DNA from: Bispira polyomma
Taxonomy: Eukaryota
Direction: 5' to 3'
Length of the DNA: 64,000 bases
Assembly (NCBI GenBank): GCA_965649765.1
Contig: OZ287753.1
Span: forward strand, 78,120,001 to 78,184,000
Under the pieces are notes generated by a model, which was not told where the DNA came from, ran no database searches, and was given only the letters and a program-made list of their open reading frames with translations. This document shows, piece after piece, positions 29,700 through 63,962 of the stretch. Positions within the stretch are counted from its first letter, which is position 1. Every line of letters starts with the position of its first letter. The translations under genes and the position numbers were made by a program.

Positions 29700-30423
29700 A
29701 TTGTAATTGTAATTAATTGTAATTAGACTTTTATTGCGCTTAATCTCCCCTTAACAAAGGGGACTCTAAGGCGCACCAGCACAAAAGACAGTTATCTAAT
29801 TTCCAAAATCAAGGGACAGAAAAAGGGTCAGCAACATAGAGCGCGCCGGGGGATGATTGAAACTAAGGTGGATATGCTTTAGTGTACAAGTGGGTTTTAA
29901 GCTTCTTTCTAAAACAGGCTAGTGAGGGGGAAGCACGAATCACATCAGGAAGACCATTCCAAACAATGGGAGCATCAAAAGCAAAGCTGTGACCAAACTG
30001 TTTTACCGACCTTTGAGTAGATGGGTGGAACTTCGAAACAACAAGGAAATTACTACCACTCTGACTATGTCTGGTATTGTAGGAAATACTGTAAGTGGAA
30101 AGATATGGGGCAAAGTACTTTGGAAACCCAGTGTGGAGAAATTTATAAACAAGTGTAGCTGTCTTAAACACTGAACGCTGTCCAACAGGGAGCCAATGCA
30201 ATTTCTTAAGAACAGGAGTTATACTAGTGTATCGACTGGTGTTTGACACAATTCTAGCTGCACTATTTTGAATGCATTGTAATTTGCGTAAATTAAACTT
30301 TGAGAGACTCCTGAAAAGTGAATTGCAGTAATCCAGTCTACTACTGACAAAAGCATTGGCCACAAGTATAGAAGCATCATAAGTGAGAAACCGTCTGACA
30401 CGTCTAAAGTCACGGATTTGCAA
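29700..30423 (-). mobile_element. Young 5'-truncated L2 copy inserted in the 3' UTR of the older L2
   Basis: 186-aa open frame (SRLDYCN, LHWLP, AYPP), (ATTACA)n tail, aaatggtgg on both flanks. Nearly identical to 46073-46783. Confidence 0.92.
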
Positions 30424-30913
30424 ATGGTGGTCATAACCAGGAAAAGTACCAGATAGGTTGCGACGGCTAAGGTGGAAAGGCCTGTTCGAAAAGGTAGGCC
30501 TTCAGCTTACTCCTGAAAGAGGAGAATGTTTGAGCCAGGCGAATATGATCAGGCAGGCTGTTCCATATGAAGGGGCCATCATGAGCAAGACAATGATTAA
30601 AATGTACTTTGGATTTGTGGATGTGAGGGTCAAAAGTGGGAATATTAAGATATAATTTATCAGGGTTACTGCACCTTGTCCTGACTTAGCATGCTATATT
30701 TGGATAGATGGGGGCTGAAATAGGTGGCTAATCCAGAATTTAGAAATTTGTATAAAATTGTTGTAGTTTCGAAAGCAACACGATATTTTATTGTATTGGG
30801 AGCCAGTGGAGTGATTTGAGTATAGGAGTAATGTGAGAAAATTTAGAAGTTTTGGCCACAATGCAAGCCAGTGAGTGTTTAACGTTCTGAAGGCGTCTGA
30901 GATCACTACAAGA

Positions 30914-37732: not shown

Positions 37733-38065
37733 ATAGAACCGTCTCCATGTGCACGGCTTGCGGTTGCGGCTGCGGCAAAGTTCGCTCTAGGATCGAATTT
37801 TACCGCACCCGCAAGCTGCCGCAAGTCGGAAGTACAAAAAAAAAATACTTACTTTATCTTTGATGTTAATAAGGTTATTTGGTATCACATTTTTCGTCTT
37901 ATTCCACTGATTTAAATGGTGAAAGAATTTTAAAAATCGGACCATAAATAAGAAAGTTATGAATTTCGGAATAAAAATTATATATTTGGTATATCATACG
38001 CCAACAGAATATTAACGCAAGCCGCACCCGCAAGCCGCTTGCCGTGCACATGGAAACGTACACTA
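37733..38065. mobile_element. Harbinger-like MITE just upstream of dNK
   Basis: TIRs ccgtctccatgtgcacggc / gccgtgcacatggaaacg with GCGG-rich subterminal repeats. A related end lies at 33271-33320. Confidence 0.7.
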
Positions 38066-38220
38066 AGTAAACAACTTTTGCCGGGGAGAAAAATTAGCGG
38101 GAAAATTAAACGCGTTTTGATTTGCTTGTCATTATACTGGGTATTTTTAATTTGACGGAGGTAAACTTTTTTCTGTTACATTCATTCAGGCGAATAAACG
38201 TAGCAACACCTTGAGGGAAA

Positions 38221-38269
38221 ATGTTGGATGATTGCACCGATTTGGACTGGGATGACCTAGAAAACATAG
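38221..38269 (+). CDS. dNK candidate exon 1a ([16 protein letters not shown], acidic), phase-1 end
   Basis: ATG at 38221, 16 codons + G, donor G|GTAAT. The phase matches exon 39598-39650. Confidence 0.6.
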
Positions 38270-41200
38270 GTAATATTCATTTTTCGTTTGTTTACATTTT
38301 TTGTGTAGTCACGTGATTAACAATGGCGAAACATGGGCCGTTTAGTTTATGCTGACTTAACAGAAACATGTCTGTCTGGCATATATTATTCACCCATTTG
38401 TATATATAAAGTTATGCTGAGGCAGAGGAAACACATCAGTTGTTTTTTACAGAGCTGACATGAAAGTCTTTTGTTTGAGAAGTTTGACCCTCGGCAGACG
38501 TGGCCTTTCGGATAATCGCCTTTTGTCTCGCTCACTGGCTTACCTTGCCCCCTCTTCTGTTTCTGAAGAAGACGGTAAGTTGCCTAGTTTACCAATTAGG
38601 GTTACCCTGCAAATTAATGACAATTTGTCATGAAAGGTAAAGTATGATGTTCAACAGGGTTTCCGACGTACACGGGTGGTACGAATTCTGGACAGAATTT
38701 GATGTTTTTACTTAAATTTAAGTATGTTGCATAAGATAAAATAAAAAGTCAAATGTACTGAAATAGGTATACATGAAACACTTGTCATACATCAATATAA
38801 ATGAAAAATCTTTTGACAGATTCTTTAAAATAAGGTTTTAAATTTGTTTATATGTCGAGTCAAGTGGTATGAATTCTGGACAGTTTTGCGGCTAGGAGGA
38901 AGTGTAAGGCTGAGTGTCACCTAGGGATTCAATTGTGCAGAAATAGCTTTTCTGTATGCTTCTTTATCTTATTTCCTGTTATTATTATTTTTATTTCCAT
39001 AACTTTCTTATTAAATCTGAAATAAACAATATTTTATCAGGTCACTACATTGCCACCATAAGAAATAAGTAGATGTACTCAAAACACCTATATGCAAATG
39101 CATTATATAGGACTAACTTGTATCTGTAACTATACATTTAAATTATGATTTATTATATATTTTGTCATTTTTTTTAGTAAGAAGACATTCAGTAGTGTAA
39201 AATAAATTACAAAATATTTAGTTTGACATGATAGTTTATGTGTATTTTCTGGTATTTCCATATTTTATTTATTGTCCAGAATTCGTACCAGCCAGAATTC
39301 TTACCACCCGTGTACCTAAAAAAATTACGTTTATCGTAAAATACAATTGATGATCGTTGAGGTTTTCGGCATACTTAATGAAATTACGGTTACTGTAACA
39401 TTTGACACATTAAACATCGGGATCCGTTATGTATCATTTTGATCAGACATCTGTCACCTGACACGTTATTGCTTTGGTTAATTAGCGAAAAGATCCTGTA
39501 CTAAAAATAACATGTCTTTAGAACCATTATTACCGATGCTAACTTTTCCGAGATTTAAAACTGTCTGAGTAAATATTAAAATTACTTTTTGTTTTAGATG
39601 GATTGCAAGGATTGCGGAAATTTTGCTCCAAAAGAAAGAGAAAATTTACAGTTAGTGCTCATTGTAAAATATTCACATTCTTTTTCTTTTATACTGTTAG
39701 GTTGTAATATAACATACCATGGTAAGTTTGATATTCAATATTAACTTTTGAGGCATACTAGTAAGTGTGCTGCCATAGAATACATCCTCACACTTCCAGT
39801 TATTCTGGTTGGTTGGCTGAATTAATATTTTGTCAAATACACCCAAAATGGTCTGTCTAATGAAAACTTACAACAAATAAATTCCAATACATATATATTT
39901 TGCCTTTATTTTCAGTTATACCAGCTTTTAGTCGGTTACATGTTAGATATTAAACAACTATTCACAGCCGATACAAATAATTAAAGGGGACTAACCGACT
40001 TTAAATTTTGAAGACTTCATATCACTCCTGCAAAAGCACTAAAAGTTCATCAAAATCAAGTGTTTAAAAGTGGTTGCGGTTAATTAATAATATAATATGA
40101 CCTAAGCTGTTACAAGCGACAGAAAATCTATCTTAATCCAAAATTCAGAAATAAACAAGCATGTAACCTATGGAAGATAATGACCATTTTGAATCCTTCA
40201 TACGTCGGAAATATTTCTGATTAATCAATCTTGCATACGATGGCTCGAATCCCATGATAACTAATTTTAAAGATGCATGTCAGGTTAAGATATGTTACAA
40301 CTTACAATAGGTTAAGTGTAACCTCTTTTTGTTTCATTAACTTGATTTAAAATTTTATCTTTCAGGTGTCAATTGAAGGGAATATTGGTTGTGGGAAGTC
40401 CACTTTGCTCAACTATTTTCAAAGCTGTCCTTCTGTTGAGGTAACATTAGTTTTTATTGTTTAAAACTTTAAATACTTTTATGTTTTAGGGAACAAAACA
40501 GTAACTGTTTGCATATGGGTCTGCGAACTCAAAAAGGACAAGTAAGCCACAATTCTTACAGTCTTAGCCCAAAAATTCAGTGACTCAACTTAAAACAGAG
40601 ATATCTTGATTGCAGTAAAGTTGCTATTACTGACCTTCCAAGCGATGAGATGTGGCTAGATTTTTAAATGAAAACTATTAGGCCAGTGTTCATCTTGTCC
40701 CATGCACTTTGGAGGGAATATACAAGTTTTCACTTAGTTTAGAGTTTTCTTTGAATATTCTATAGTATAAGAATAATAGTAAGTTATTTATGTATGTGTG
40801 TATTTTATTTTGACATTGCCTTTGATTGGTGTGTTGATTTGATCAGTAAGACGTCATTATACCTAGTGCTGTAAAAACGTAGGTGTGTGGTTCGACACGA
40901 CACAATTTCATTTTCCAAGCAAGTTAGGGAAGTATGCAAGTCTTGTTTCATCCAGATGAGAGATCTCAACAGGGTTAGGCATCATTTGTTAACTAGCAAT
41001 GCTACAATAATCGCAGATGCCTTGGTTACAAGCCCTCTAGATTGCTGTGATTCTCTTGAAAAGTCTATCAAAAGGGGATATCTGTACACTCCAATGTATC
41101 CAAACCTCACTGCCAGAATAGTCGCCAACCGCTCCAAGTACTCTTATATCACTCCGGTCCTCAGAAGTCTTCACTGGTTGCCTATTGAGTTTAGATCTGT

Positions 41201-44200
41201 ATTCAAAACAGCTACTCTAGTTTATAAATTCTTTAACTCTGGTCTTCCACTTTATTTGAGCCCATACCTTACACCTTATACATGCAGTTACAACACTAGA
41301 AGGAGTAATTCAGAAAAAGGATTCCTTACTGTTCTGAGATTTGTCTCAAGCTTTGTCTCAGTTCATAAATTTAAACGTTACTTCAACAATAGTTTTGCTC
41401 ATGATGCCCCAATGCTTTGGAATGGTCTACCTGTAGAAGTTTGTTGTGCATCCTCGCTCACATCCTTTTGGTAAAAACTTACCTATTTGACAATGCTCTT
41501 TCCCTGTAGCCCAAAATACTAACAGTGTCTCCACGGTACTGACCCATGCCTGTCCAATGATAATCCAAAATTAAATAATGATTTTGTTTGCGCCTTAGAA
41601 TCTCCTATTGCGCCTTAGAATCTCCTATTATGGAGAGATTAAGTGCTATATAAGTTAGTTTAGATTAGATTATACCTATATTAGTGGTACAGTAAAAATT
41701 AGTATTACAAATTTCTTATTTTTAAATTACATTTTTTCCCCCTTCTATTTCAGTCATTAAAGGAGCCAGTAGAACAATGGACCTCTCTAAAGGGTCACAA
41801 TCCATTGGTAAGAAATACTAAGCTGTCACATATATATGCCTGATATGTTAAAAATACGACTGCTTTGTAATAAAAAAAAAAAAAAAAGATTCTAAGTTAT
41901 GTTTTAGAGATGTATTTATAAAATAATACAACCCTAATATTGATAGTCATTTAAACTATCTGTAATATTGATACGCAAGGTGTTTAGTTGTTGTGGGGAT
42001 TTTAGGCCACAATTTTGGGTATTCGTGAAAACTTGAGCTGCAGAAACAACAAACCTTGCATCAGTTTTGTAACTTAAACTTCATATTTACAAAAATATAT
42101 AAATATCTCGTCGTTTTAGACTTCTGTCACTGTTATACGTCGCATCAATGTCATCATAGTTCCATATCGCGGAAGACGGTTTTACAGTCATAACTAAAGC
42201 TGCAAGTCAAGAGTAAAACCTATTTCAACTAAATAAAGTGCTAATACAAAACTAAATTGAGCTATTTTGTTCATTTTTCCAGGGTATAATTTCAAATTTA
42301 CATGTTTTTCAATAGATTTTGTTTACATCTGCCGCCATTTTGTTAGACTGGTTTCTGGGATTGGCGCATACTAAATTCGCGGGTACCCGTTTTTGGACCG
42401 GTTAGACGCTAGCGATTATTCGGGCCGTTTTTTAGAGCCCGTCTCACCCCTAAATTTAATAAAGAAAACTTCTTTTGTTTTATTCATTTCTTTCAGAAAT
42501 TACTGTATGAAGACCCAGAAAGATGGTGCTTTTCATTCAACAACTATGCCATGCTGACTCGGTTAGAAATGCATAAATTAAAATCTGTAAGTATAGAATT
42601 TTTGGGAAACTTAACCGAGAGAGTATCTGGGAAATTCAAGTTCTCTATAGAAAAACAGCAACTGTAACAGTTTTTTTTAAGTAGAACCCTGTTAAGTTTA
42701 GTTCCATTATATGTTAAAAAAATTCTGTTATTCCACATAATTTGTAGTACCAATAAAATCGACCTGTTAAGCGGAAATCCAGCTGGAGTGTACATACTAT
42801 TCCCTGCGTCCAATGTCTGGGAGGGGTGTTACGTTAACTCAATCAGTTTCTTAATAAAATTAAATGGCAGCTGTTGTTGCCGATGTGGAATAGCTTTCCG
42901 GCCATTTAAAGGACAAGCGCTGCACATAGCTTCACCAGATTTAATACATGGGTTTATCAGTTTTAGGAAAAAGCTTAAAACCTATCTTTTTAATCTTGCC
43001 TACCCACCTTAGCTTCCCTCGTGCACGCTCACACTTCCTTCCTAACGACTTTGCAATGTCCATGGACTCAATGATTGGACCAATGATTCTGCTGTTGTGC
43101 TTTAGAAGATGCCCAGCATCAATAGAGCGTGTTAGAAATCTATAATAATATCACAGGTATAGCTTGTTTGGGATTGTTTTTTCCGTTCACACATGATAAT
43201 ATGTATGAGTTTTACCGCAGAAACAATGTCCAGTTTCAGACAACCTGCGCCAATCTTGCCTAATTATCCTATCAGCTGCTACATGATATGATTTACAGGC
43301 TAATTGTTGACCTATAAAAACTACGTGCCTTAATCTACTTATTGTTTCTTTTATTTTGCAGCAACTACCAGTAAAAATAATAGAAAGATCTTTGTTCAGC
43401 ACAAAGTATATTTTTGTGGAGAACAGTTATCGACAGTAAGTGTCTTTTTATAAGAAACTGCATAAAATCTCCCAATACCTGAAATTCTGTCACCAGAATT
43501 TTAAATATCAATGCCTTTCTAATTATTTTGATTGGTTATATATTTAGGTTTCAGTAAGTATTTGTTATAGCAAATAGTTTTGTATTAGTAGAGTTCACAT
43601 TTGTAGTACAAATATTGAAATGGATTTATGTTCCCACAGGGACATTATTTTTTGTGAAAGAAAATCACTTAGTTTTGACATAAGTTACCTGGTCTTAAAA
43701 ACAGAGCATCAAAAACAGTTTTCCACAAACAAAACAGTGGATGGAAGGCCTCTTGACTCCTTGCTAAATGTTTTACAAAAAACATCTCCTTGTCGGATTT
43801 GTCTATTAGTAAACTAAAAATTTGGTTTTTATAATTTAGAAGACATCCTGACATCCCAGTGATAATACCAAGATTAATTAACAAATTTGATAGCAACACT
43901 AGGTTTTAACATCTTATTGAAAGCCTTAGGTAATTTGACCTATTACAAATGCTGCCTAGCTGTATGTGCTCGTTTAAGAATTTTACACTTGCAGTAGTCA
44001 TTATTCTCATTGGTCGGTTAGTTGTGACGTCCCTATAGTATGTACGACGTATTCCAATCCTATGATCTCACATTTGTAGGGGACTCCTCACAGATCTGGA
44101 AAATGCAGTGCTCTCAGAGTGGTTTGAACATATCATCAAAAGCAAAGACATTGGGGTCGATTTGTTTGGTATGTTGTCAGTTTTTAGTTTAAAAAGTAAA

Positions 44201-47200
44201 ATTCAAAATTATTAGATTGTAGTGTGCTGGTTCACTATATTTTTAATGTGAAGATAACAGCAGCATTTTTATAACAGTGATCTATCCCATTCTGAGTTTT
44301 AGGCGAAGAATAACATGCGTAAATTTCCAGTTCATAGTTTAAGATGCTGTGTGGATTGTACTAGTACTTCGAATTTTCAACGTTGATAAACTCTTGTATC
44401 CCAACTCGGTTCCCTTGGTACCATCTCGCGGCCCTGCTTTGCAATGCTTCAGCACTGCTTTCTTCCAACATTGAATCTTGCCGACATGATGAGAAATAAG
44501 TTTTCGAAAGTGACGTAAACCAAATTCAAATGGTTTGCCCATGAGACAGTTGCTTAGACCCAGTGGTGTGCAGTACAGAATATTTACCAACATACCTACA
44601 CTACTGTCTAAATTCCCAGCCTTCCATCTCTGAGGTCATGGGCTTGAATCTCGGCCGCGACTTTATGTGTGAAAGTTGGCAATTACTTGCCGATGCCCAG
44701 TGGTTTACAGTGCGAAAAATGGACCAACTTGTATGCACTGCTTTCCCCCACTAATGAAATTATCTGTTGTGATATGACCCATACAATGTGTTAAAGCGAT
44801 ATGACCCATACAATGTGTTGAAGTCAACGATAAACCCAAATCAAATTATTATTTTTTCAATTCAGTGAAGTTCTTGCCATTATAAAATGCATTGCTTTCA
44901 AAAGCAACAATGTGCTAGAACAAGTTTGGTTGAATTTGTTTGGGATTTATGTCGCTTTCAATAGCTTAGGTCATATCGCAATGGCCCGATTCAATGGTTG
45001 GAAAAAAAAACCACCAACCTACAGCAACTACCTTGCAAACTCCCACTATGAAGGAACAAACAGGATTCGAACCCACATTGGTGAGAGACCGTTGATTGTG
45101 AAGCAGACACTTTTAACCTCTAGGTCACCGCAACAAACCAAAATCTATGACAGATGAGTTAGCACAGAATTAATATTGTTACTTTTGTGACTTTTCAGTG
45201 TATTTGAGAGCCCCTCCAGATGTCTGTTACGAGAGATTAAAGAGTCGAAACAGGAAGGAAGAAGTGGGTGTACCGTATGTAAGTACAGAATATGTAACAT
45301 TTTAAAATTGAAGTGGAACGTTTAATTTCACTTCTGAACATTCTAAATAAAGTATGTAGAAGAAGATAAAACAATGCAGTAATCATTCAGGAATACATGA
45401 ATTTCTTTTTTACATTGATTGTAACCTCCCCAATATTTATGTACGCTAGAATGAGAATGGACTTCCTCTCATATTTAGGACCTTATTATGTGTAAAACCT
45501 ACTAGGGATGATTTGAGGTTATTATTAATAAAGTATGTGTCTAGTAAATTTTGTTTATATTGGCCTATAATTTAAAAAAGTAGAGAATGACCTTTATATT
45601 GATTTATAATACAAACCAAACAAATTCAGATAATTATGATTCTCGAGCTTGGGATGAAAACCTGTTAAGGTTCTGTTTTGGGCCCTCTGTTGTTCTCATT
45701 ATACACGGCCCCTCTCAGATTGGTTATTGGCAAATACACAGGAATAAAGTTTCATTTTTATGCAGATGATACCCAAATTTATGTGCACCTATCCCATAAA
45801 AACACATCTACTGTCTTTGAACAGTTGAACAGGTGCCTTGACGATGTGAAAGAGTGGATGTCAACTGGTAAACTCAAACTTAATCCCGACAAGACTGAGT
45901 TCATAATCTTTGGCTCAAAACAACAGAGGGATAAGTTGAAAGCATTGTTTCCAGTTGACATCCTGGGTAGCCCTTTCAGTCCAGCTGATTCTGTCAAGAA
46001 CCTGGGTGTATGGTTTGACTCTGACTTTTCTTTCTCTAAACACGTTCAGAATGTCTGCAAAAGCTGTTTTATGCAATTCTGTGACTTTAGACGTGTCAGA
46101 CGGTTTCTCACTTATGATGCTTCTATAATTGTGGCCAATGCTTTTGTCAGTAGTAGACTGGATTACTGCAATTCACTTTTCAGGAGTCTCAAAGTTTAAT
46201 TTACGCAAATTACAATGCATTCAAAATAGTGCAGCTAGAATTGTGTCAAACACCAGTCGATACACTAGTATAACTCCTGTTCTTAAGAAATTGCATTGGC
46301 TCCCTGTTGAACAGCGTTCAGTGTTTAAGACAGCTACACTTGTTTATAAGTTTCTCCACACTGGGTTTCCAAAGTATTTTGCCCCATATCTTTCTACTTA
46401 CAGTAGTTCCTACAATACCAGACATAGTCAGAGTGGTAGTAATTTCCTTGTTGTTCCGAAGTTCCACCCATCTACTCAAAAGTCGGTTAAACAGTTTGGT
46501 CACAGCTTTGCTTTTGATGCTCCCATTGTTTGAAATGGTCTTCCTGATGTGATTCGTGCGTCCCCCTCACTAGCCTGTTTTAGAAAGAAGCTTAAAACCC
46601 ACTTGTACACTAAAGCATATCCACCTTAGTCTCAATCATCCCCCGGCGCGCTCTATGTTGCTGACCCTTTTTCTGTCCCTTGATTTTGGAAATTGGATAA
46701 CTGTCTTTTGTGCTGGTGCGCCTTAGAGTCCCCTTTGTTAAGGGGAGATTAAGCGCAATAAAAGTCTAATTACAATTACAATTAAGGGGTTTAGTCAGTA
46801 GCACCGATACAAAGTCCAAAGACCATAAAATTCAAACAGAAAGCAGTAACCATGGCAATAGTTTTCATTGGATCCTGCATAAAAACCTAATCGGTTCTAA
46901 TTCTCTTTGGAACACACCTGTACACCAACTTGGTGAAAATGTATGACATTGTTCAAAAGTTATTGCTCCGGTTAAAGTTTTTGGTTAGAAATGCCTGCTT
47001 TACAATCACTGGCTTCTCACCAATGTCTGTTTGAATCATGTTCGTTGTTTCATGTGGGAAAGTTTGTTAGGTACTTACCATATGTCGGTGTTTTACAGTT
47101 CTTCATCACTGGTTTCTGCCATCATTAAATCTGGCTGTTGTAATATGACCTAAGCTGGTAACAAAGAACAAAATATTTTGTATATTAGATTTTGCATTTT

Positions 47201-48488
47201 TTTCTGCCAGGAATTCATTGAACAATTGCACCACTTACATGAAGACTGGTTAATTCACCAAAGAAGTCAAACAGTTCCGGGACCTATACTGGTGAGTGCC
47301 TGTCTCGTCCTTGTATCTGCTAGATTTTTGCAAGAGAAAAGTATTCGCTCTATGTAACTGTTTTATATCTGACTCCATATTCTGTCTCCATATTATTTTA
47401 ATGGACAGCAGTAAGTCAATGTATGTGTGGTTCAGGTTTCATGAAAATTTTGATTGATACTGATTTGGTGGGGAGGTCACAGGATAAGTATAGTGACAAT
47501 TGCTGGGCAGAAATAAATATGTGAAACTCGAGATCCAGAGTTCAAAGAAAAGGTTTTGTTTGGGCTGCAAGTTTATGTCTACATAAAATCGGATGTAGTC
47601 GATTTCTATTCAATTGGGTTTAACTGTATAAGTAAAATGTATTCGAAAAATGACTTCCTTTCTATTGTCCCCAAATTTTGTGTTTCTACTGCTTTAGGCT
47701 GCAGCTTAGTCGTTAGAAGTGCTTGCTAATAATCACTGCCCTCTCATCATAGTGGGTTTGAATCAAGTTTGTTCCTTTATGTGGGAAAGTCTCTCAAATA
47801 CTTGCTGTTGGTTGATGATTTACAGTACTTGAGTACTGGTTTCTTCCACCATTGAATCTGACCATTGTGATATGACCTGAGCTGTTGGAAGCGATGTAAA
47901 ACCCAATTAACTTCAAATTTGAATCCTACTGTTTTAAACGGATATGTCTCTTCTATTTTTATAAACTTAAACATCTTAATTCCTTCCAGCATGTTCAGCA
48001 AATAAGAGGTTTTGTACTGTATATTCAGCAGATTTACAGGTTTTCTTTTGGTGTAATGGTTATGGAGTTGGTCTGGTGATCAGAAGGTCCTGGGTTTAAC
48101 TCCCACACTGGTCGCTAGTTTCATTTGGTGGAATAACCTCCTTGGGCAAGCGGTAAACACAAGTTTATCTAGTGGGTCAGATGACCACTTAAAATGGTGG
48201 TGTCACTGAGTTTTATCTCCAGTGGCAGTTCGAAGACCCTTGTGGACATTGATAAATGGTCAGCCTCGGCACCCATAGTGGCTGCCTATGGGGATCGTAT
48301 ACCGTATAAGTGCGCTATAATTCATATCACATGCTATGTTATTACAGGTTCTGGATGCCAGTCAGGAACTGCCGCGCATGAAGGAGTTGTATGAAGAATA
48401 CAGATCCGAGATCTTGTGTGGTTGTGAGTGTGTGGAGACACAAACTGTAGCAAGCGACACTCTCCCTCTCTCCAGTTTAGCTCATTGA
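38221..48488 (+). CDS. dnk: Deoxyribonucleoside kinase gene (Dm-dNK/TK2/dCK family), spliced. ~261 aa from exon 1a or ~283 aa from exon 1b
   Basis: Hand-assembled GT-AG exons with consistent phases. Motifs: P-loop [28 protein letters not shown] motif (IERSLFS), lid [10 protein letters not shown] and [10 protein letters not shown], colinear with Drosophila dNK as recalled. Confidence 0.93.
38460..38574 (+). CDS. dNK candidate exon 1b, mitochondrial-presequence-like ([38 protein letters not shown]), phase-1 end
   Basis: ATG at 38460, R/L/S-rich with few acidic residues, consensus donor G|GTAAGT at 38575. A possible acceptor ttttttacag ends at 38452. Confidence 0.7.
38671..39312. mobile_element. 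Tc1/mariner-type MITE in dNK intron 1
   Basis: TA|CACGGGTGGTACGAATTCTGG ... CCAGAATTCTTACCACCCGTG|TA. Confidence 0.85.
39598..39650 (+). CDS. dNK exon 2 ([18 protein letters not shown])
   Basis: Acceptor tttttgttttag and donor GTTAGT. Joins in frame to give FT|VSIEGNIG, as in the dNK family. Confidence 0.8.
40366..40440 (+). CDS. dNK exon 3, P-loop ([25 protein letters not shown])
   Basis: tttcag| ... |gtaaca. Walker A motif EGNIGxGKST. Confidence 0.95.
40860..41672 (+). mobile_element. L2-clade LINE 3' fragment in a dNK intron
   Basis: VCKSCF, LHWLP, SFAHDAP..WNGLP, gcgccttagaatctcctat tail (duplicated 20-mer), (TAGAT)n. Confidence 0.9.
41754..41807 (+). CDS. dNK exon 4 ([18 protein letters not shown])
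   Basis: tttcag| ... |gtaaga. Catalytic EP..W motif. Confidence 0.93.
42497..42586 (+). CDS. dNK exon 5 ([30 protein letters not shown])
   Basis: tttcag| ... |gtaagt. Y.DP.RW motif. Confidence 0.93.
42930..43150 (+). mobile_element. L2-type 3' end fragment
   Basis: [16 protein letters not shown] followed by a 3' tail. Confidence 0.7.
43362..43435 (+). CDS. dNK exon 6 ([25 protein letters not shown])
   Basis: ttgcag| ... |gtaagt. ERS motif. Confidence 0.95.
44080..44168 (+). CDS. dNK exon 7 ([29 protein letters not shown])
   Basis: ttgtag| ... |gtatgt. Phases 2/1 match the neighbouring exons. Confidence 0.92.
45199..45278 (+). CDS. dNK exon 8, lid region ([27 protein letters not shown])
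   Basis: tttcag| ... |gtaagt. YLR..P...R...R.R.EE motif. Confidence 0.95.
45667..46783 (+). mobile_element. Young 5'-truncated L2-clade LINE in a dNK intron
   Basis: [35 protein letters not shown]. One frameshift (~46190) and one stop (46531). (ATTACA)n tail with ttaagg on both flanks. Confidence 0.95.
47211..47291 (+). CDS. dNK exon 9 ([27 protein letters not shown])
   Basis: tgccag| ... |gtgagt. HEDWL motif. Confidence 0.95.
48045..48322 (+). mobile_element. tRNA-derived SINE (CORE/Meta-like), ending ~25 nt before the last dNK acceptor
   Basis: ggtgtaatgg A-box-like start, gggtttaactccc B-box-like, ccttgggcaag (CORE-like), and an L2-like tail aagtgcgctataa. Confidence 0.65.
48348..48488 (+). 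CDS. dNK last coding exon ([46 protein letters not shown])
   Basis: ttacag|, VLDA motif, TGA at 48486-48488. Confidence 0.9.
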   Translation, partial: VLDASQELPRMKELYEEYRSEILCGCECVETQTVASDTLPLSSLAH

Positions 48489-52560: not shown

Positions 52561-53038
52561 GAGATGGCTAATGAGTTTTTCAATAAAGAAGCTTGAGAAT
52601 AGATTGTTTTTCTACAATAGATTGGCAGTGATATTGATTACCAATGATGAAAAAGTTTCACAGAAAAGCCATTACTTTTGACTGACGTAGCCCTTCAAGA
52701 GTTGTACTGTTGTATTCTGGACACATATCTGGACAAGTGGTAGAACCTCTATTATCCAAACTTCTATTATCCGAAAATTCAATTTTATTGCATAAAAATG
52801 GACTTACCTCGTCCTAACAGACGCCATAGTTGATGGCCGTCAACTAGAACACGGTTAAAAAATAGCCGAAAAAGCTATCATACTACCTTAAACCTGTGAT
52901 TCAGTGGTGTACCTATTAAGTCAATTACGACGTGGTCATGTGATCTCGTTTGAATCCTCACAATAGTTTTGACCGTTACAGTGTGCACACCATATTGGAA
53001 TTTTTTTATAAGGTTTTCGTGTTTTTTTTCTTGATATT

Positions 53039-54876
53039 ATGGCGGATGATGGTTCTTTAGTAGTAAAGGGACAATGTTTTATCTGTAAGCATTGGCTTTT
53101 GTCGTGGGATGACCATAATTCATGTATAAAATGTAGATTTAAAGGAAAATATGATTTGTGTGGGCCAGAAATGGCGGAAGAATGTCGTATTTGTTTGGGC
53201 TTTACTGATCAACAAGTAGATATTGTTAAGTCAAGATTTGCTAACTATACTAAAAAGCTCAAGCTAAAAGCTTGGGAAGATATTTTGCTAGGTGATGATA
53301 ATGAGGGTCAGCAGGATGTAGTGAAATCCCCTGTTGTACCGAGTGTACAGGAATCGTTGTCTTTGTTATTGTTACAAGTTGGTAACCTAGCAACTAGGAT
53401 GGATGAGTACGAAATGCCCTCCTCGTTTAGTAAAAAGCACCCGGCAAAATCCACGAAATCTTCGGGGGGAAAATCGTCACACAAGTCTTCAGGGTCTTCC
53501 AAGTCAAAATATACATCTAAATCTGCAAAATCTGACTCCAAGGCTAAATCGACCTCAGCTGCAAGCCTTGACGAGCCTTCAAAGAGCCTTGAGGTTGAGA
53601 CAGACTCTGAGGGAGGCCAGGATTTGTCTACAGGCCAGGAAGGTCTAGCCAGAGATTTTTTGTCAGGAGGCTGTGGGTTTCAGCATACTGACGCCTCCAC
53701 ACGCCCACACAACCGTGTCAGACCCACTAACCAAGATGATATACCTACTGAAGGATTTTTCTGGTTCTGAGGCAGTGCTAGTGCTAGTCCCACTACAGGA
53801 GGGGGATAAGTCATACACAGAGCCAGAAATAGACCCATGTTACTCAGAGATGTTAGCAGCTATCAGGAAGTTACTTGGACTGTCAGTTCAGATACCTGAG
53901 GTGTCTGCTCCTCTATCTTTGTTTAACAAGAAACCATCTAAAAAAGCGTCAACCTTATCTGCTTTGGTATTTCCTCCAGCTGCCAACATGGAGGACGCCT
54001 GGAATTACAGCCAAAGGAAGGCTTCAGGCAGATTCTACAGGCAGTTTAGAGGCTCAGCCTCTTGGAAAGGGACATTTTTATACCTTTGACAAGCCAGTTA
54101 TGAGATGGTATACTACTATACCCCAGTCTTTTGCCTTTTGCCCTGACACCACCTAAGTTACCAGATGGATTTGCCAACATAGCCAGATCTTCATCGATGC
54201 CTTTGATTTATACTCCAGCAAAACAGTATCTGTCTCAAGAGCAGGCTGCAAGAGAGAACGTACAGATTCTAGGCCATGCCTCATGGTTTAGTCTTGCTTT
54301 ACAGGAAATTAATACCAGGATGGCACAATTGTCTGCGGATATCAGAGCTTGTTCTTCCAGGGATGTTTTGAATGAAAAGCTGGATGAGTTAGACCATAAT
54401 ACCCAGCTTTACTCTTCTATCACCACTTCATTGGACACTGATTTAGATACTATTGTAGCCCACAGTATGACCTTAACATGTAATTTTCTACTAAAGGAAG
54501 GGATAATTACTTGAAAAACTGTCATGATCAGGTCACATCAGAGGACTTAAATTTGTTGAGATCAGCCCCTTTTGTGTCCAAGGAAGTTTTTCCTGCAGAC
54601 TTTTTGTCTAGACTAGAGAAACACTACATACAAAGACTTCATGTACCTAAGAACACGGCTTGTTCGAATACAAAGTCAAGCATTCAGGGTTATGACTCTA
54701 GGAGAGACAATTGTCCGAATAATCAGAAGCCCTACACTAGGCCTAACACCCAGCAGTCTCAGAAGAAGTCCGGGGGTTACAGGCAGTTTAACCAGCAGCA
54801 GTCCACAAAGCCTGTATACCAGCCGAACCCGTCCTTTTTTTGTGGCTCTCGCAGAAGAGGAAGTCGGAGGATTTGA
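53039..54876 (+). pseudogene. DIRS ORF1 (gag-like, N-terminal Cys/His finger), frameshifted
   Basis: CFIC...DDHNSCIKCR...C...CRIC finger, S/K-rich linker, and an RR-rich C-terminus spread over 4 frames. Confidence 0.75.
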
Positions 54877-54889
54877 CTATCGCGCCACC

Positions 54890-56660
54890 TTGTGAGCAGG
54901 GGGACGTTTGGAAGGTTTTTATCAGGTATGGAAACATTTTCAAGTACATCCAAGTGTAGTCCTCATGTTACAACATGGTTATTGCCTAGATTTGGAGAAT
55001 TCGGCCAACTTTGGCACGTTTTCCCACAATAAAAAGCAGTTATTCGGATCCTCAGAAGCAAAAATTACTTCTACAGGCAGTAACAGATATGTTAGACAAA
55101 AAGGAAATAGTTCTGATTGTAAGGAGGGCTTCACTAGATTTCTACAGTCACTTGTTCCTAGTTTCAAAACCTCAAAACAAATGGAGACCAATGATAGATT
55201 TGAGTACAGTCAACAAGTTTTTGAATATTCCGACATTCAAAATGGAAACGGCGGAGTCGATTCAGAAGTTGGTGGTCTAGGGCGAATGGGTAATACCGCT
55301 AGATCTCACAGACTCGTATTCTCACATTCCCATTTATTAAACTTGTCAAAAATACCTGCGTTTTCAGGTAGCAGATCAGGCGTACCAGTTTGTAGCTCTG
55401 CCATTCGGCTTGTCATCAGCCCCTCTAGAGTTTACCAGAGTTGTGAAGGAAGTAAAATTTTTAGCTTTGGCTCACAATCTCAGAATACACCAGTATCTTG
55501 ACGACTGGCCATTAAAAACAAAATCTCAAGTGCTGTGTGTTCAGAAAACGCAGGAATTACTGGTTCTAATTCAGAAATAGGCTGGCTAGTAAAAAAATCA
55601 GAACTCCTTCCAACGCAAAAACTCGATTTCTTGGGATACCATTTCAATCTCGAAAACGGTCTGGTATTTCCAACAAAAAAGAAATGTTCTGTACTCGAAG
55701 ATCACATTGTCTCCATTCAAGGTGCAAAGTTTACAACTACAAGGAAGCTAATGTCCCTAATAGGCACCATGGCTTTCATGGAAAAAACAGATTCCATTGG
55801 CAAGGGTTCACATGAGGCCATTCCAATGGTATCTAAAGAGGTACTGGACGTACCATCACTTTCTAGATTTGAGGATTCCAGTAGAGTCCATTTTGCCAAC
55901 TCATCTGGAATGGTGGAAAGATCCCAAGAACCTTTTGAAGGGTTCTCCACTTTATCCAGAAGAACACAGTGTTCTGTTGTTCACGGATGCCTCAAACAAG
56001 AGTTAAGGAGCTCACATAGAAAACCTAAGTGCAAGTGGTCTATGGAGCCCGTCAGAGATAAATCTCCATATAAATCTGTTAGAGATGAAAGCCATGTTTC
56101 TGGCCCTGAAGAGTTTTTAGTCTCAGGTCCAGAACAAAGTTGTTCTGGTGGCATCAGACAACACCACAGTGGTGTCTTATGTCAACAAGCAAGGGGGGAC
56201 ACATTCCGTGAGTCTGGAGGCTCATGGCATGGACGAATGTCAGGGGCATACAGATAAGAGCCAGACATGTTCCTGGAAGTATGAATGTGATTGCCGACTC
56301 CTTGTCAAGGATGGACAGGACCATTCAGACCGAGTGGCCTCTTTACCCAAAGATGTTCAGTGCAATTTGCAAATAGTGGCACAAACCAATAATAGACATT
56401 TTTGCGACCAAGCTCAATCACAAGCTTCCACTGTATGTATCTCCTGTTCCAGAGAGTCAAGCTTGGGCAGTAGATGCATTGAACATCTCTTGGGAGGGTC
56501 TGGATGGTTGTTTATTGTCCAGTCGCAGTGCTGTCGCAAGTGATTCAAAAGATAATCACTTACGACTGTCGAATGCTCTGCCGCAGTGGGAATTGCTATT
56601 GAAACAGCCATTTAATCACAAATTCCACAGCAATCTGGAGTTTCTGAATCTTCATGTTTG
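54890..56660 (+). pseudogene. DIRS pol: RT + RNase H + adenine-methyltransferase-like domain, frameshifted
   Basis: FYSHLFLV..WRPMIDL..FKMET, ALPFGL, YLDDW, KSELLPTQ..FLG, LFTDAS, HINLLEM, SDNTTVVSYVNKQGGT, NVIADSLSR, DIFATKLN..DALNISW. Confidence 0.9.
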
Positions 56661-56689
56661 GTATCTTCAGTCAGAGGTCAAAGTTCTGG

Positions 56690-57512
56690 AAGATTCTCGC
56701 TTTTGGTGGAAAACAGAATTAAGGCGCCTCAGAGGGAATCTACCAGAAAAATGTATCAGTCAAGGTGGTCCATTTTTGGGAAATGGTGTGGGGAGAACAA
56801 GGTGGATTTCAAAGCACCTACTATTCCGCAAGTAGCTGAATTTTTAATTTTCTTTTTTCAGAGAAAGGCTTAAAACTATCTACTATTGTAGGTTACAGGA
56901 CAGCTATTGTGAATGGCTTGGGTTTATTGGGCGAGGCTATCTCAAAGAGTGTTGAGCTTAATAGACTTTTGGCTAGCTTTTATAGGGACAAGCCTAGGGC
57001 TAACAGGGCTATTCCATCTTGGGATTTGGCTTTGGTACTTTTAGCTCTAACAAAACCAACATTTGAGACTTTACATGAAGCATCCTTGAAATTATTGACT
57101 TTTAAGACTGTTCTTAATGGCTTTGGCTTCAGGGAAGAGGAGTGAGATCCATGCATGGACTCATTCTTCATTGAGATTCAGGGAAGGTTGGACTGAGGTT
57201 ACAGTTTCACGTTCTCCTGCTTTTCTAGGTCAGAACCAGTTAGCTTCAGATGGCCCAGATTCACTCAGGCCAGGGGTTGTTCCAGCCTTAAAGCCTACTC
57301 TTGATAAGTCTTTGGTTGAGGATTTTTTCTTGTGTCCAGTGAGGTCATTGAAGTATTACTTAGATATAACTAAGGATTTGAGGTCAGACAAGAATCTTTT
57401 GTTTGTATCTATGAAACAAGGTTTTTCTATGGATATTTCCAGGTCTACCATTTCTTTGTGGCAAAAACGGACTATTCTGTTTTGTTACAAGAATTGTGAC
57501 CAGTGTAGATAG
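56690..57512 (+). pseudogene. DIRS tyrosine recombinase, frameshifted and C-terminally truncated
   Basis: YQSRWSIF..WC, PSWDL..VL, LLTFKT, ALASGKR(R)SEIHA, CPVRSLKYY, LFVS, ISRSTISLW. No HxxR or catalytic Tyr segment is seen. Confidence 0.88.
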
Positions 57513-61041: not shown

Positions 61042-63962
61042 TTAATAAAATCTCTGCGGCGGTCTTCTCTCCCTCTCCGGGTATCTCCTGCCTGCCTCCA
61101 CTGTCACTGAGGGTTTCCCCTGGGTGGTCACGGTATCCGAAACGAGGTTTAATGGTTGTTCTCTGTCATTTTGTTCAGTGTCCTGTGAGCTACTATCACC
61201 GCTAGGTGTATCTCGAGCGTTAATCTCATCTGGGAACATGAGCAACGGTGGCGTGAAACTTTGAGTGATAGGCACATGTTCTTGGACAATCTTTGAACAA
61301 TCAGACTTTGGTATAAAACAAGACCGTAATTGGTCTTCATATCTTTTCCACACAATATCTTCTACTTTAACTTCATAATTTCCGGGACTGACTATTTTAA
61401 GCACCACTCCAGGTATCCAACGAGCGCCTCGTCCAAAATTTAACACAAACACCGGATCGTTCACCTTGAACTTTGCCACACAGTCAATGTTTTCTTGAAA
61501 AATTTTAACCTCTTGTGTTAAACTTTTGGACCTTAATGCACTGAGCCTTATTCTAGGCTGTCTGTTTGTCAATAATTCAGAAGGTGACTTCCCTAATGAA
61601 GTAGGGATAGCTCTGTAGGTTAACAAAAATCTATTCAATTTGGTTTGTAACGACTCCCCTGTGTTCCCAATCTTACTGATTTTTCTTTTAAAATCACCCA
61701 CATATCTTTCAGCAAGTCCATTTGTAGCTGGATGCCCAGGGGAGGTTGTAGTATGGTGAACATCATTTTCAGAGAGAAATTGTTTGAACTCACCACTGGT
61801 AAACTGTGAACCATTGTCTGTGACAATATGTTCAGGTAATCCAAAGTAGCTGAAAATATGTCTAAGTGCAGCAATCGTGTTGGCAGATGTAGCATTGGTC
61901 ATTGGCACAGTATTAACATATTTTGAGTATGCATCGACTAAAACCAGGAACATTTTATCCATGAATGGACCCGCAAAGTCTAAGTGTAAACATTTCCATG
62001 GCCCTCCAGGCCAGGACCAAGATACGGGCTTGGGTGAAGGTGAAGATAGAGATGCTTCCTGACAAGCGACACACATTTTAACAGTTTCCTCAATTTCCTG
62101 ATCCATTTTAGGCCACCACATGTACCTCCTTGCTAATTGTTTCATTTTTACCATCCCCATGTGTGCTGAATGCAAATCCTTGAATAGGATTTCACGCAAG
62201 GAGTCTGGTATAATAACTCTGCTATCCCACAATAAAATGTCATCCTCATTTGCCAACTCGAGCCTTTTCCTATAGAAAGGAAGTAATTCAGAGTCCACAT
62301 CAGATAGCCAGCCCGACTTAACAAACTGTAAAACCTTGTACAAAATGAGATCTCTCTTGGTTTCAGTATGAACAGTTTTTGCCCTCACTGTGTTATCCAT
62401 GTCAACGAATAAAACATTTGAAGTAACACTTTCCAATGGTGTAGGTTTTCCCTCAATAGGTTTCCTAGACAGGAAATCTGCACACACATTGTCCTTACCG
62501 GATATGAATGTGATCGTGTAGTTGTAGGCTGCAAAGATAAGTGCCCACCGCTTAATACGACCTGAAGCCAACTGAGGTACACCTTGGTGTTCCCCTAACA
62601 ATGTTATCAGTGATTTGTGGTCTGTAAACAGCTGAAAATGTCTGCCCAGCAAGTATTGTCTAAATTTAATCACACCAAAAATTATGGCTAGAGATTCCCT
62701 TTCTATTTGTGAGTAGTTACATTCGGCACTGTTTAGAATCCTTGAAGTGTAAGCCACGGGCTGTAGATTGCCACTATCATTTGGTTGTAACACTGCTCCT
62801 ACTCCGACTGAGGAGGCATCACACTTTAAAACCAAAGTTTCCTTTTGATTATAATGTTTCAAAACAGTTTCTGAGCACAGAAGGCCTCTGATTTTTTCAA
62901 AAGCCTCTGACTGTGTTCTTCCCCACTTCCACACAGATTTTCTACTCAGCAGCCTGTACAAAGGGGACATGACTTTTGCAAAATCTGGAACAAATCTTCA
63001 CAGAAAGTTTGCAGTTCCGATGAAAGATTACAGTTCACCCACATTTGAAGGGGGTTTAGCCTCTTTCAAGGTTTTCACCTTGTCTGGTGTAGGTGAAATC
63101 CCTTCGCTGGATATGGTATATCCCAAATATGTGATTTCTGTCATCATGTAATGAAATTTGTCTTCCTTCAATTTTAGTCCACAATCTTGCAATTTGGCTA
63201 GTACTCGGTCCAGATTTTCTCGGTGTTTTTCATCGTTTTCTCCTGCAATCAGAATATCATCCACATACACACAACAACCGGGTAAATCCTGTAATACATT
63301 TTCCATCATTCTCTGGAATATCGACACTGCACTATTGATGCCATATGTAAGTCGGTTGTACTGAAAAAGTCCCTTTATTGTATTAATAGTGGTGTATTTC
63401 CTGCTTTCTGGGGTTAATTCCAATTGATGATAAGCTTGGGAAAGGTCAAGCTTTGTGTACTTCTTCCCACCAGTGAGCCTGTGAAGAAGCTCTTCAATAG
63501 TAGAAATAGGGTACTGTTCCAAATCTGAATACTTGTTTACAGACACAGAGTAATCCCCGCAAATCCTTAAATCTCCACTAGGTTTGAGAACAGGAACGTT
63601 CGGTGAGGCCCACTCGGAAAATTCAACCTTCTCAATAATTCCTTCAGCTTGAAGTTTGTCCAGGGCCTTTTCATACTGACCACGAATTGAGAATGAAACA
63701 GGTCTTGGTTTAAAAAAACTGGTTTGTCATCCTTGACACGCAAACCCACCTGAATATCTTTGAGTTTCCCCACCACATTTGTGTCAAACAAATTTGAGAA
63801 TTTCTGCAACACTTGATCTCTTTCTGAGATACTGATGTTGAATATAGTATGCCATGGAAGTTTAAATTTTGTCATCAAGTCCCGACCAATTAAAGAAGGT
63901 CCTTTAGTCTCAACCACACGAATGACAAGATTATCCCTTTGGTTTCCAATCTGTACTGTCAT
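61042..63962 (-). pseudogene. Gypsy pol (RT-RH-IN); 642-aa RH-IN segment open, frameshifts upstream
   Basis: ORF track 61042-62970, 63028-63546 and 63567-63962. Confidence 0.92.

Follow-up and report, generated by a model that had tools for sequence, protein, structure and literature searches.

A deoxynucleoside kinase gene with two candidate first exons, predicted to serve two compartments and likely to prefer purines

Introduction

Can a single deoxynucleoside kinase gene supply both the mitochondria and the rest of the cell? Vertebrates divide these compartments between separate genes (dCK versus TK2/dGK), and the question is raised by one gene in an animal genome of 1.035 Gb, where it lies at C6:78.12-78.18 Mb. 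We analysed a stretch of 64,000 nucleotides there, called the window below. The original prediction for this locus held that one kinase reaches two compartments through two N-terminal exons, the second of them translated by way of a uORF switch. Our analysis supports the two alternative N-terminal exons, one acidic and one presequence-like, and lends little support to the uORF route to the second protein. We consider it rather likely that two promoters and two first exons provide dual targeting of one kinase.

Results

The kinase gene and its two candidate first coding exons

We found a kinase gene on the plus strand of the window, with two alternative ATG-led first coding exons. Exon 1a (38221-38269, 49 nt, donor GTAATA) encodes an acidic start of 16 codons without a presequence, and exon 1b (38460-38574, 115 nt, donor GTAAGT) encodes 38 presequence-like codons. 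Both end in phase 1. Joined by script to the common exon 2 (39598-39650) and to eight further AG/GT-bounded exons, 1a opens a stop-free frame of 261 amino acids and 1b one of 283, both through ten-exon models; the coordinates, phases and protein lengths put forward originally are all borne out. The further exons are exon 3 (40366-40440, with the P-loop), exon 4 (41754-41807), exon 5 (42497-42586), exon 6 (43362-43435, with the ERS motif), exon 7 (44080-44168), exon 8 (45199-45278, the lid region), exon 9 (47211-47291) and exon 10 (48348-48488, which ends at the stop codon). The junctions 38269>39598 and 38574>39598 are those of a predicted gene model. The KRKRK stretch that had been reported in exon 2 is likewise present, at 39630-39644, where it adjoins the first beta strand on its N-terminal side; since exon 2 is common to both forms, so is this basic patch. 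Downstream of the 1b ATG the frame contains no further Met until past the P-loop, so that a presequence-less form would need exon 1a.

The first-exon region (38124-38640) is a single-copy island between two high-copy repeats in three genomic contig runs. Just upstream of the promoter region lies a MITE-like high-copy element (37735-38065, unstranded) with inverted arms at 37740-37763 and 38035-38058 (24 nt, 88% complementary). Genomic contigs of run X1 reach a summed depth in the thousands over this element and of about 15 over 38228-38539. Most of intron 1 is filled by a second high-copy repeat (38644-39371, unstranded), delimited by depth bins of genomic contigs. Genomic contigs are identical to the window across 38025-38671, and 38070-38640, used as a DNA query against its own genome, returned the self-match only.

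Exon 1a and its upstream region

Judged by its peptide, which is conserved in annelid-clade orthologues, exon 1a is real. A 1a-like acidic segment, with a WDDLE-type motif before the junction Asp, opens 11 of the 15 annelid-clade rows and stands behind a basic extension in two others; the remaining two have another first segment. A TGGGA within exon 1a encodes conserved W-D residues. The 1a donor is weak (score 4.4), with one of the 28 true donors of the gene and its paralogues scoring lower. The 1a ATG has an A at -3, a context that limits leaky scanning.

We then investigated the region upstream of exon 1a; here as at exon 1b, all promoter patterns were chosen after seeing the sequence. An E2F-like site at 38094-38104 (plus strand) lies 127 nt before the 1a ATG and is likely part of a 1a promoter. 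Its pattern, picked after seeing the site, has one match in the window against 0.05 expected. An E2F-like motif is also found 120 nt before the ATG of one close orthologue transcript (L013) from a metagenome scan in which 80 of 333 loci were kept, and the C3 paralogue described below has such motifs 111 and 85 nt upstream of its own ATG. We read this motif as a possible cell-cycle promoter for presequence-less forms. A strong acceptor-like sequence (38167-38189, plus strand; score 11.3) also stands upstream of 1a: 25 of 33 true acceptors score lower, and 16 of the 7209 AGs in the window score as high. A TGA at 38212 keeps any coding frame from passing from there into exon 1a. A 49-nt 5'UTR intron ending at 38189 was not accepted; its donor scores below all 28 true donors.

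Exon 1b and its candidate promoter

Exon 1b is probably real. Its donor scores above all 28 true donors of the gene and its paralogues under leave-one-out scoring, and only three of the 7425 GTs in the window score as high. The first 30 residues contain five R, one K and one D (net +5), 63% R/L/S/A and a helical moment of 0.50. In a survey of 314,000 strand-bases (the window plus 10 loci), 57 phase-1 segments begin with ATG, contain no stop and end in GTRAG; exon 1b is the only one of them that is presequence-like, by a filter (net charge at least +4, at least three Arg, at least 40% R/L/S/A) whose thresholds were set after seeing 1b. Presequence likeness is judged here on composition and helical moment, and in net charge, R/L/S/A content and moment the 1b peptide equals or exceeds the leaders of mollusc rows annotated as mitochondrial. 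A phmmer search with this peptide against 1.84 billion representative proteins gave no match at E<=0.001, and among the annelid proteins from the homologue searches none begins with a segment homologous to 1b. Conservation was looked for in both first exons: it held for 1a, whereas these searches gave no homologue of 1b.

A TATA box (38405-38410) and an initiator-like TCAGTT (38436-38441) on the plus strand make up a candidate promoter (38405-38441) that ends 19 nt before the 1b ATG. Its predicted start, 38438, is 22 nt before that ATG, with no other ATG between. The TATA box is at -33, the edge of the usual spacing. The window contains three such pairs against 1.24 expected, and 16 of 100 shuffles reach three; because the pair is not enriched window-wide, only its placement is informative. 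By arithmetic from the window density, a pair within 100 nt before a given ATG has a chance of about 1-2 in 1000, for a pattern defined post hoc. An E-box, GTCACGTGA, at 38308-38316 (plus strand) is a possible proximal element of the 1b promoter; its pattern has three matches in the window against 0.12 expected.

First segments in related proteins

We then investigated how related proteins begin. The nearest are about 70% identical, the named ones being from the annelids Capitella, Paralvinella, Ridgeia and Lamellibrachia, and the window protein falls with these annelid proteins within a 12-row clade (support 99/98); the gene is therefore likely that of an annelid worm. First segments are swapped at one shared junction, which precedes the F of FTVS by 16 residues, in Lineus and in the siboglinids: between the Lineus RefSeq forms X1 (basic) and X2 (acidic), and between Lamellibrachia (basic) and Ridgeia (acidic), together with a further row of their cluster. 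Neither basic segment passes the presequence filter, that of Lineus X1 having a net charge of +1 in 30 residues and that of Lamellibrachia, a gene model with uncertain support, a net charge of +3. The first segments of Liolophura X1/X2 and X3 differ as well. Of the 66 distinct long N-termini of the clade, many of them near-copies, 52 have a basic leader and, behind it, a conserved internal M[LI]G start, and for this reason the making of both forms looks like an old trait of the clade. In molluscs, Lingula and one annelid-clade row (P0010), the leader lies upstream, in frame with the internal M[LI]G. The TGA at 38212 blocks this route in the window, so that an intronic exon would be the available way to gain a presequence. 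As for the basic patch of exon 2, at least four K/R occur in the matching seven residues of 13 of the 15 annelid-clade rows, and the pattern K[KR]x[KR] occurs in only six of the 15 within the stretch tested.

Enzyme lineage and active site

The window protein carries the P-loop, ERS and lid motifs of the deoxynucleoside kinase fold (Pfam PF01712). We searched PDB chains with a profile of 15 orthologues, to which the window protein is 70% identical. Dm-dNK was matched with E-values of 1e-74 to 5e-73 and dCK/dGK with 1e-53 to 1e-45, about 20-28 orders weaker. Because the profile matches Dm-dNK far better than dCK/dGK, we place the kinase in the TK2/Dm-dNK lineage; on profile score, and with a tree that contains no dCK/dGK, it does not qualify as an orthologue of vertebrate dCK/dGK.

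At the Dm-dNK positions Q81, V84, M88 and A110, a gap-free alignment places N92 (codon 42539-42541), A95 (42548-42550) and R99 (42560-42562) of exon 5 and T121 (43401-43403) of exon 6, numbered in the 1a form. The Q/V/M(L)/A signature of TK2 proper and pyrimidine kinases is absent. From 195 proteins, 189 in the length range and 187 with a P-loop, we obtained 191 rows by adding four genome models; the rows, which are not independent, divide into 115 with N/A/R/T, 40 with Q/V/M/A and 36 others. The N/D..R..T rows form one clade (27 of 48 rows, support 98/94) in a tree built without the four signature columns and without long-branch rows (including Macrostomum, Mesocestoides, Tetranychus and bacterial-type rows). 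This clade comprises annelids, nemerteans, molluscs, Lingula and Bugula and stands apart from the Q-type paralogues; members of the spiralian N/A/R/T clade are mostly labelled 'TK2-like'. A quick tree of 73 of the 191 rows, which gave long-branch warnings, was replaced by the 48-row tree.

Several of these residues have been altered in Dm-dNK. According to the work cited in PMC11357392, V84A has a lower thymidine affinity, Q81N favours purines, many dGKs natively carry Arg88, V84S+M88R+A110D mimics dGK, and V84A+M88R+A110D takes purine analogues; in that account, Q81N, V84A and M88R shift Dm-dNK away from thymidine or toward purines. Pocket residues of deoxynucleoside kinases are also treated in PMC5360312. 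In the window protein, position 110 holds T where the purine-switch triple mutants have D, and position 81 is Asn and not Gln. The Arg of the dCK/dGK purine pocket (Arg88 plus Asp110) is present, and its Asp is replaced by Thr. Because N/A/R/T occupy the four base-binding positions, a preference for purine deoxynucleosides, either by themselves or together with dC, over thymidine is likely. The vertebrate parallel is closer than the one drawn in the original prediction (dCK versus TK2/dGK): with a purine-type active site the fitting pair is dCK/dGK, and not TK2.

Paralogues and other salvage kinases

The genome contains three Q/V/M/A paralogues, on C3, at C4:54.9 Mb and at C4:42.06 Mb. The C3 paralogue has an MLG start, E2F-like motifs and the basic patch, and no presequence; a presequence-like exon 3 kb upstream of it was rejected, lying in LINE-like sequence with a weak donor. 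The paralogue at C4:54.9 Mb has a short basic leader (net +5) and no basic patch. The copy at C4:42.06 Mb is 95% identical to it, and a search of the corresponding position yielded no first exon for this copy. A TK1 gene is also present. No dCK/dGK-like gene appeared among 23 scored PF01712 candidates, from an exon-by-exon search that scored the best candidates only and can miss such a gene. An otherwise unexplained multi-exon match, the C12 pair, reads in translation like NDUFA10, which is treated in PMC9226000. Pyrimidine salvage is likely served by separate genes (the C3 paralogue, the C4 paralogue and TK1) and purine salvage by the dual-addressed gene. Since the paralogues keep TK2-type residues and no dCK/dGK was found, this one gene may fill both the dCK and the dGK roles.

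Discussion

A two-promoter model and its alternatives

In the model that we favour, the shorter kinase (261 aa, no presequence), which is likely cytosolic or nuclear, would come from an upstream promoter, likely of E2F type, and the internal TATA and initiator motif would start a second mRNA for the longer kinase (283 aa), whose predicted destination is the mitochondria. Both first exons would be spliced straight to exon 2, so that the model requires neither a uORF nor reinitiation. The cytosol and nucleus of dividing cells would be supplied by the 1a form and the mitochondria by the 1b form, the main substrate of both being presumably purine deoxynucleosides. What the sequence shows directly is the exon anatomy, the motifs, the pocket residues, the clade and the paralogues, from which we predict the start sites, the use of both junctions, the targeting, the cell-cycle control and the specificity. 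The claim of two exons draws on the conservation of 1a, on the same-junction swaps in Lineus and siboglinids, and on the donor and presequence features of 1b; the 1a conservation, the rank of the 1b donor and the survey result for 1b exceed what chance would give.

The original prediction instead let a single promoter serve the locus, with exon 2 and the AG at 38451-38452 as alternative splice partners of 1a, and the 1b protein arising by leaky scanning or by stop-restart at an AUGA. Its description of the sequence is correct: the AG is there, the junction 38269>38453 would create a 19-codon uORF, and the TGA of this uORF (38461-38463) overlaps the 1b ATG, the acceptor and overlap together spanning 38430-38463 on the plus strand. 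A strong 1b donor with a weak 1a donor could define 1b as a cassette exon, and both out-of-frame frames stop no more than 4 nt from the 1b AUG (at 38456 and 38461). These two donors favour some use of the 1b donor by transcripts from the 1a promoter, and some splicing of 1a to 1b may occur, although we think a detectable 38269>38453 junction rather unlikely. The acceptor is weak (2.5 bits): two of 33 true acceptors score lower, 896 of the 7209 window AGs score as high, and a better-scoring AG at 38363 leads to a different uORF. It also falls inside the 5'UTR predicted for 1b from the start at 38438. Nine AGs lie in 38310-38459, five placing a 1a-frame stop at 38456 or 38461 and four reading through in frame, so that the overlap is not specific to the 38452 AG; given the ATG-A start of 1b, an overlap is automatic in one frame of three. 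The 38452 acceptor and the stop adjoining the AUG are not beyond chance. The A at -3 of the 1a ATG speaks against leaky scanning. PMC10275272 describes short-uORF reinitiation as resuming at a start that lies 3' of the stop and assigns AUGA overlaps to a viral, TURBS-dependent class of termination-reinitiation, which argues against stop-restart here. We regard a working uORF switch as very improbable.

A simpler alternative is that exon 1b is unused and only the 1a form is made, the 1b ATG, donor and composition being chance features of a promoter-proximal intron. An intron this long is expected to hold 0.24 ATG-led phase-1 GTRAG segments by chance, which together with the want of a homologue for the 1b peptide and the 1a-type start of most annelid-clade rows would agree with this. 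But a top-ranking donor, a presequence-like make-up and a TATA and initiator pair all fall at one place, relatives exchange first segments at the same junction, and the usual leader-bearing form would be missing, the in-frame extension of molluscs and P0010 being blocked at 38212; we give this alternative a small chance. Smaller still is the chance we give to a 1b that is a true TATA-type first exon, perhaps tissue-restricted, with a peptide that is not mitochondrial or with a 1a form that is cytosolic and not nuclear. Here it counts that 1b was assessed by composition and helical moment, and that the basic patch, which both forms contain, adjoins the first beta strand and fits K[KR]x[KR] in a minority of rows; against it, the 1b peptide is at least the equal of the mollusc leaders annotated as mitochondrial in net charge, R/L/S/A and moment. 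The two-promoter, two-exon model remains our preferred reading.

A possible purine kinase of spiralians

Because alternative first exons are a well-known means of dual targeting, that part taken alone would be a further example, and the purine-type clade is the more interesting part. A wider reading, which we hold tentatively and with slightly more doubt than belief, is that spiralians (annelids, nemerteans, molluscs, brachiopods and bryozoans) possess a dual-addressed purine deoxynucleoside kinase that arose from the TK2/dNK lineage independently of vertebrate dCK/dGK and does the work of both. Its N/A/R/T pocket would have been mislabelled 'TK2-like', its MLG start with a cell-cycle promoter would be conserved, and its presequence would have been re-invented repeatedly, as an upstream in-frame leader in molluscs and, in Lineus and at our locus, as an alternative first exon. 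Should the N/A/R/T clade prove to be a purine kinase, it would represent a natural form of the pyrimidine-to-purine switch that was engineered in Dm-dNK, made partly with other residues (N81, T110). If true, this reading would account for purine salvage for nuclear and mitochondrial DNA in spiralians without evident dCK/dGK, correct a widespread 'TK2-like' annotation and provide work on nucleoside analogues with a natural enzyme. Our full-text searches, with most subscription papers outside their reach, found no literature on spiralian dNK paralogues, their isoforms or the N/A/R/T class. A phylogeny of metazoan TK2-like kinases was reportedly published by Konrad et al. in 2014 and may include such spiralian sequences.

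Comparison with known systems

The AUGA stop-start overlap would resemble the TURBS systems of caliciviruses and influenza B if the 38269>38453 splice occurs; as described in PMC10275272, those systems need a structured rRNA-pairing element after a long ORF, whereas the upstream frame here has 19 codons. Dm-dNK and TK2 are the best PDB profile matches and share the P-loop, ERS and lid motifs with the window protein. They differ at Q81/V84/M88/A110, which are N/A/R/T here and which the three paralogues keep as Q/V/M/A. The protein resembles dCK/dGK in its Arg 88 and in the small residue that it has at 84, both also features of the dGK-mimicking and purine-switch mutants covered in PMC11357392; it differs in Asn 81 and in having Thr and not Asp at 110, and one gene would serve both compartments, dGK being described as the mitochondrial purine kinase in PMC12493167.

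Mouse dGK has a cytosolic isoform that is likewise presequence-less. A cytosolic TK2-like form in rat tissues, whose origin PMC7189545 states as unknown, is similar in that a mitochondrial deoxynucleoside kinase has a presequence-less form; here, by contrast, both first exons are identifiable and the presequence-less form is the conserved one. The closest parallels in gene structure are mammalian UNG1/UNG2 (bioRxiv 2020.12.22.424012) and DUT-M/DUT-N (PMC10181998), which are described as dually targeted through alternative promoters and first exons: two first exons, two addresses and one enzyme. Like them, our locus offers two first coding exons in frame with exon 2, and one of the two has the features of a presequence. 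It differs from UNG and DUT in the kind of enzyme, a deoxynucleoside kinase, in the position of the basic patch within the shared exon, and in being a prediction from sequence.

Sequence features of the deoxynucleoside kinase gene and its surroundings

A strong acceptor-like site lies on the forward strand at 38167-38189, ending 31 nt 5' of the exon 1a ATG, and is crossed by no coding frame. It could mark the end of a 5'UTR intron, serve in trans-splicing or be left over from a leader exon that once lay upstream. Exon 2 opens with an out-of-frame ATG (39598-39600) whose 44-codon frame spans exons 2-4, and this ATG could give rise to wrong gene predictions. ORF translations revealed LINE-like reverse-transcriptase fragments in the introns of the gene (40875-41474 and 45669-46533) and upstream of it (29863-30501), and, downstream of the gene (53012-57512 and 61042-63726), a DIRS-like element together with Gypsy-like pol sequence.

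Related sequences in the genome

The intron between exons 4 and 5 (41807/42497) is present in this gene and absent from all three TK2-type paralogues (L007-L012). One TK2-type paralogue occurs as a recent duplicate pair on C4, at 42.05-42.06 Mb (L011, L012 and L099) and 54.94-54.95 Mb (L009 and L010), with cores 95% identical. In the 42-Mb copy, an ATG-led first exon was not found at the matching place. Two intronless, stop-ridden dNK-like pieces (L002, C6:522466-522804; L004, C4:25473899-25474252) are related to one another and are possibly decayed copies of viral or mobile origin. Another dNK-like gene, on C12 (42.107-42.117 Mb; L093 and L094), has an N-terminal leader and reads like NDUFA10.

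Leader motifs in molluscs

Among the 66 distinct long N-termini of the kinase clade, which include many near-copies, an xNQ motif is kept in 32, about 40-53 residues ahead of the internal M[LI]G start of the short form, and FGG[KN] in 23, about 24-33 residues ahead of it. Both motifs occur in mollusc proteins such as P0020-P0045 and P0157-P0195, where, judged from the protein sequences alone, they could correspond to CCAAT and E2F promoter sites that lie within coding DNA and serve the short form.
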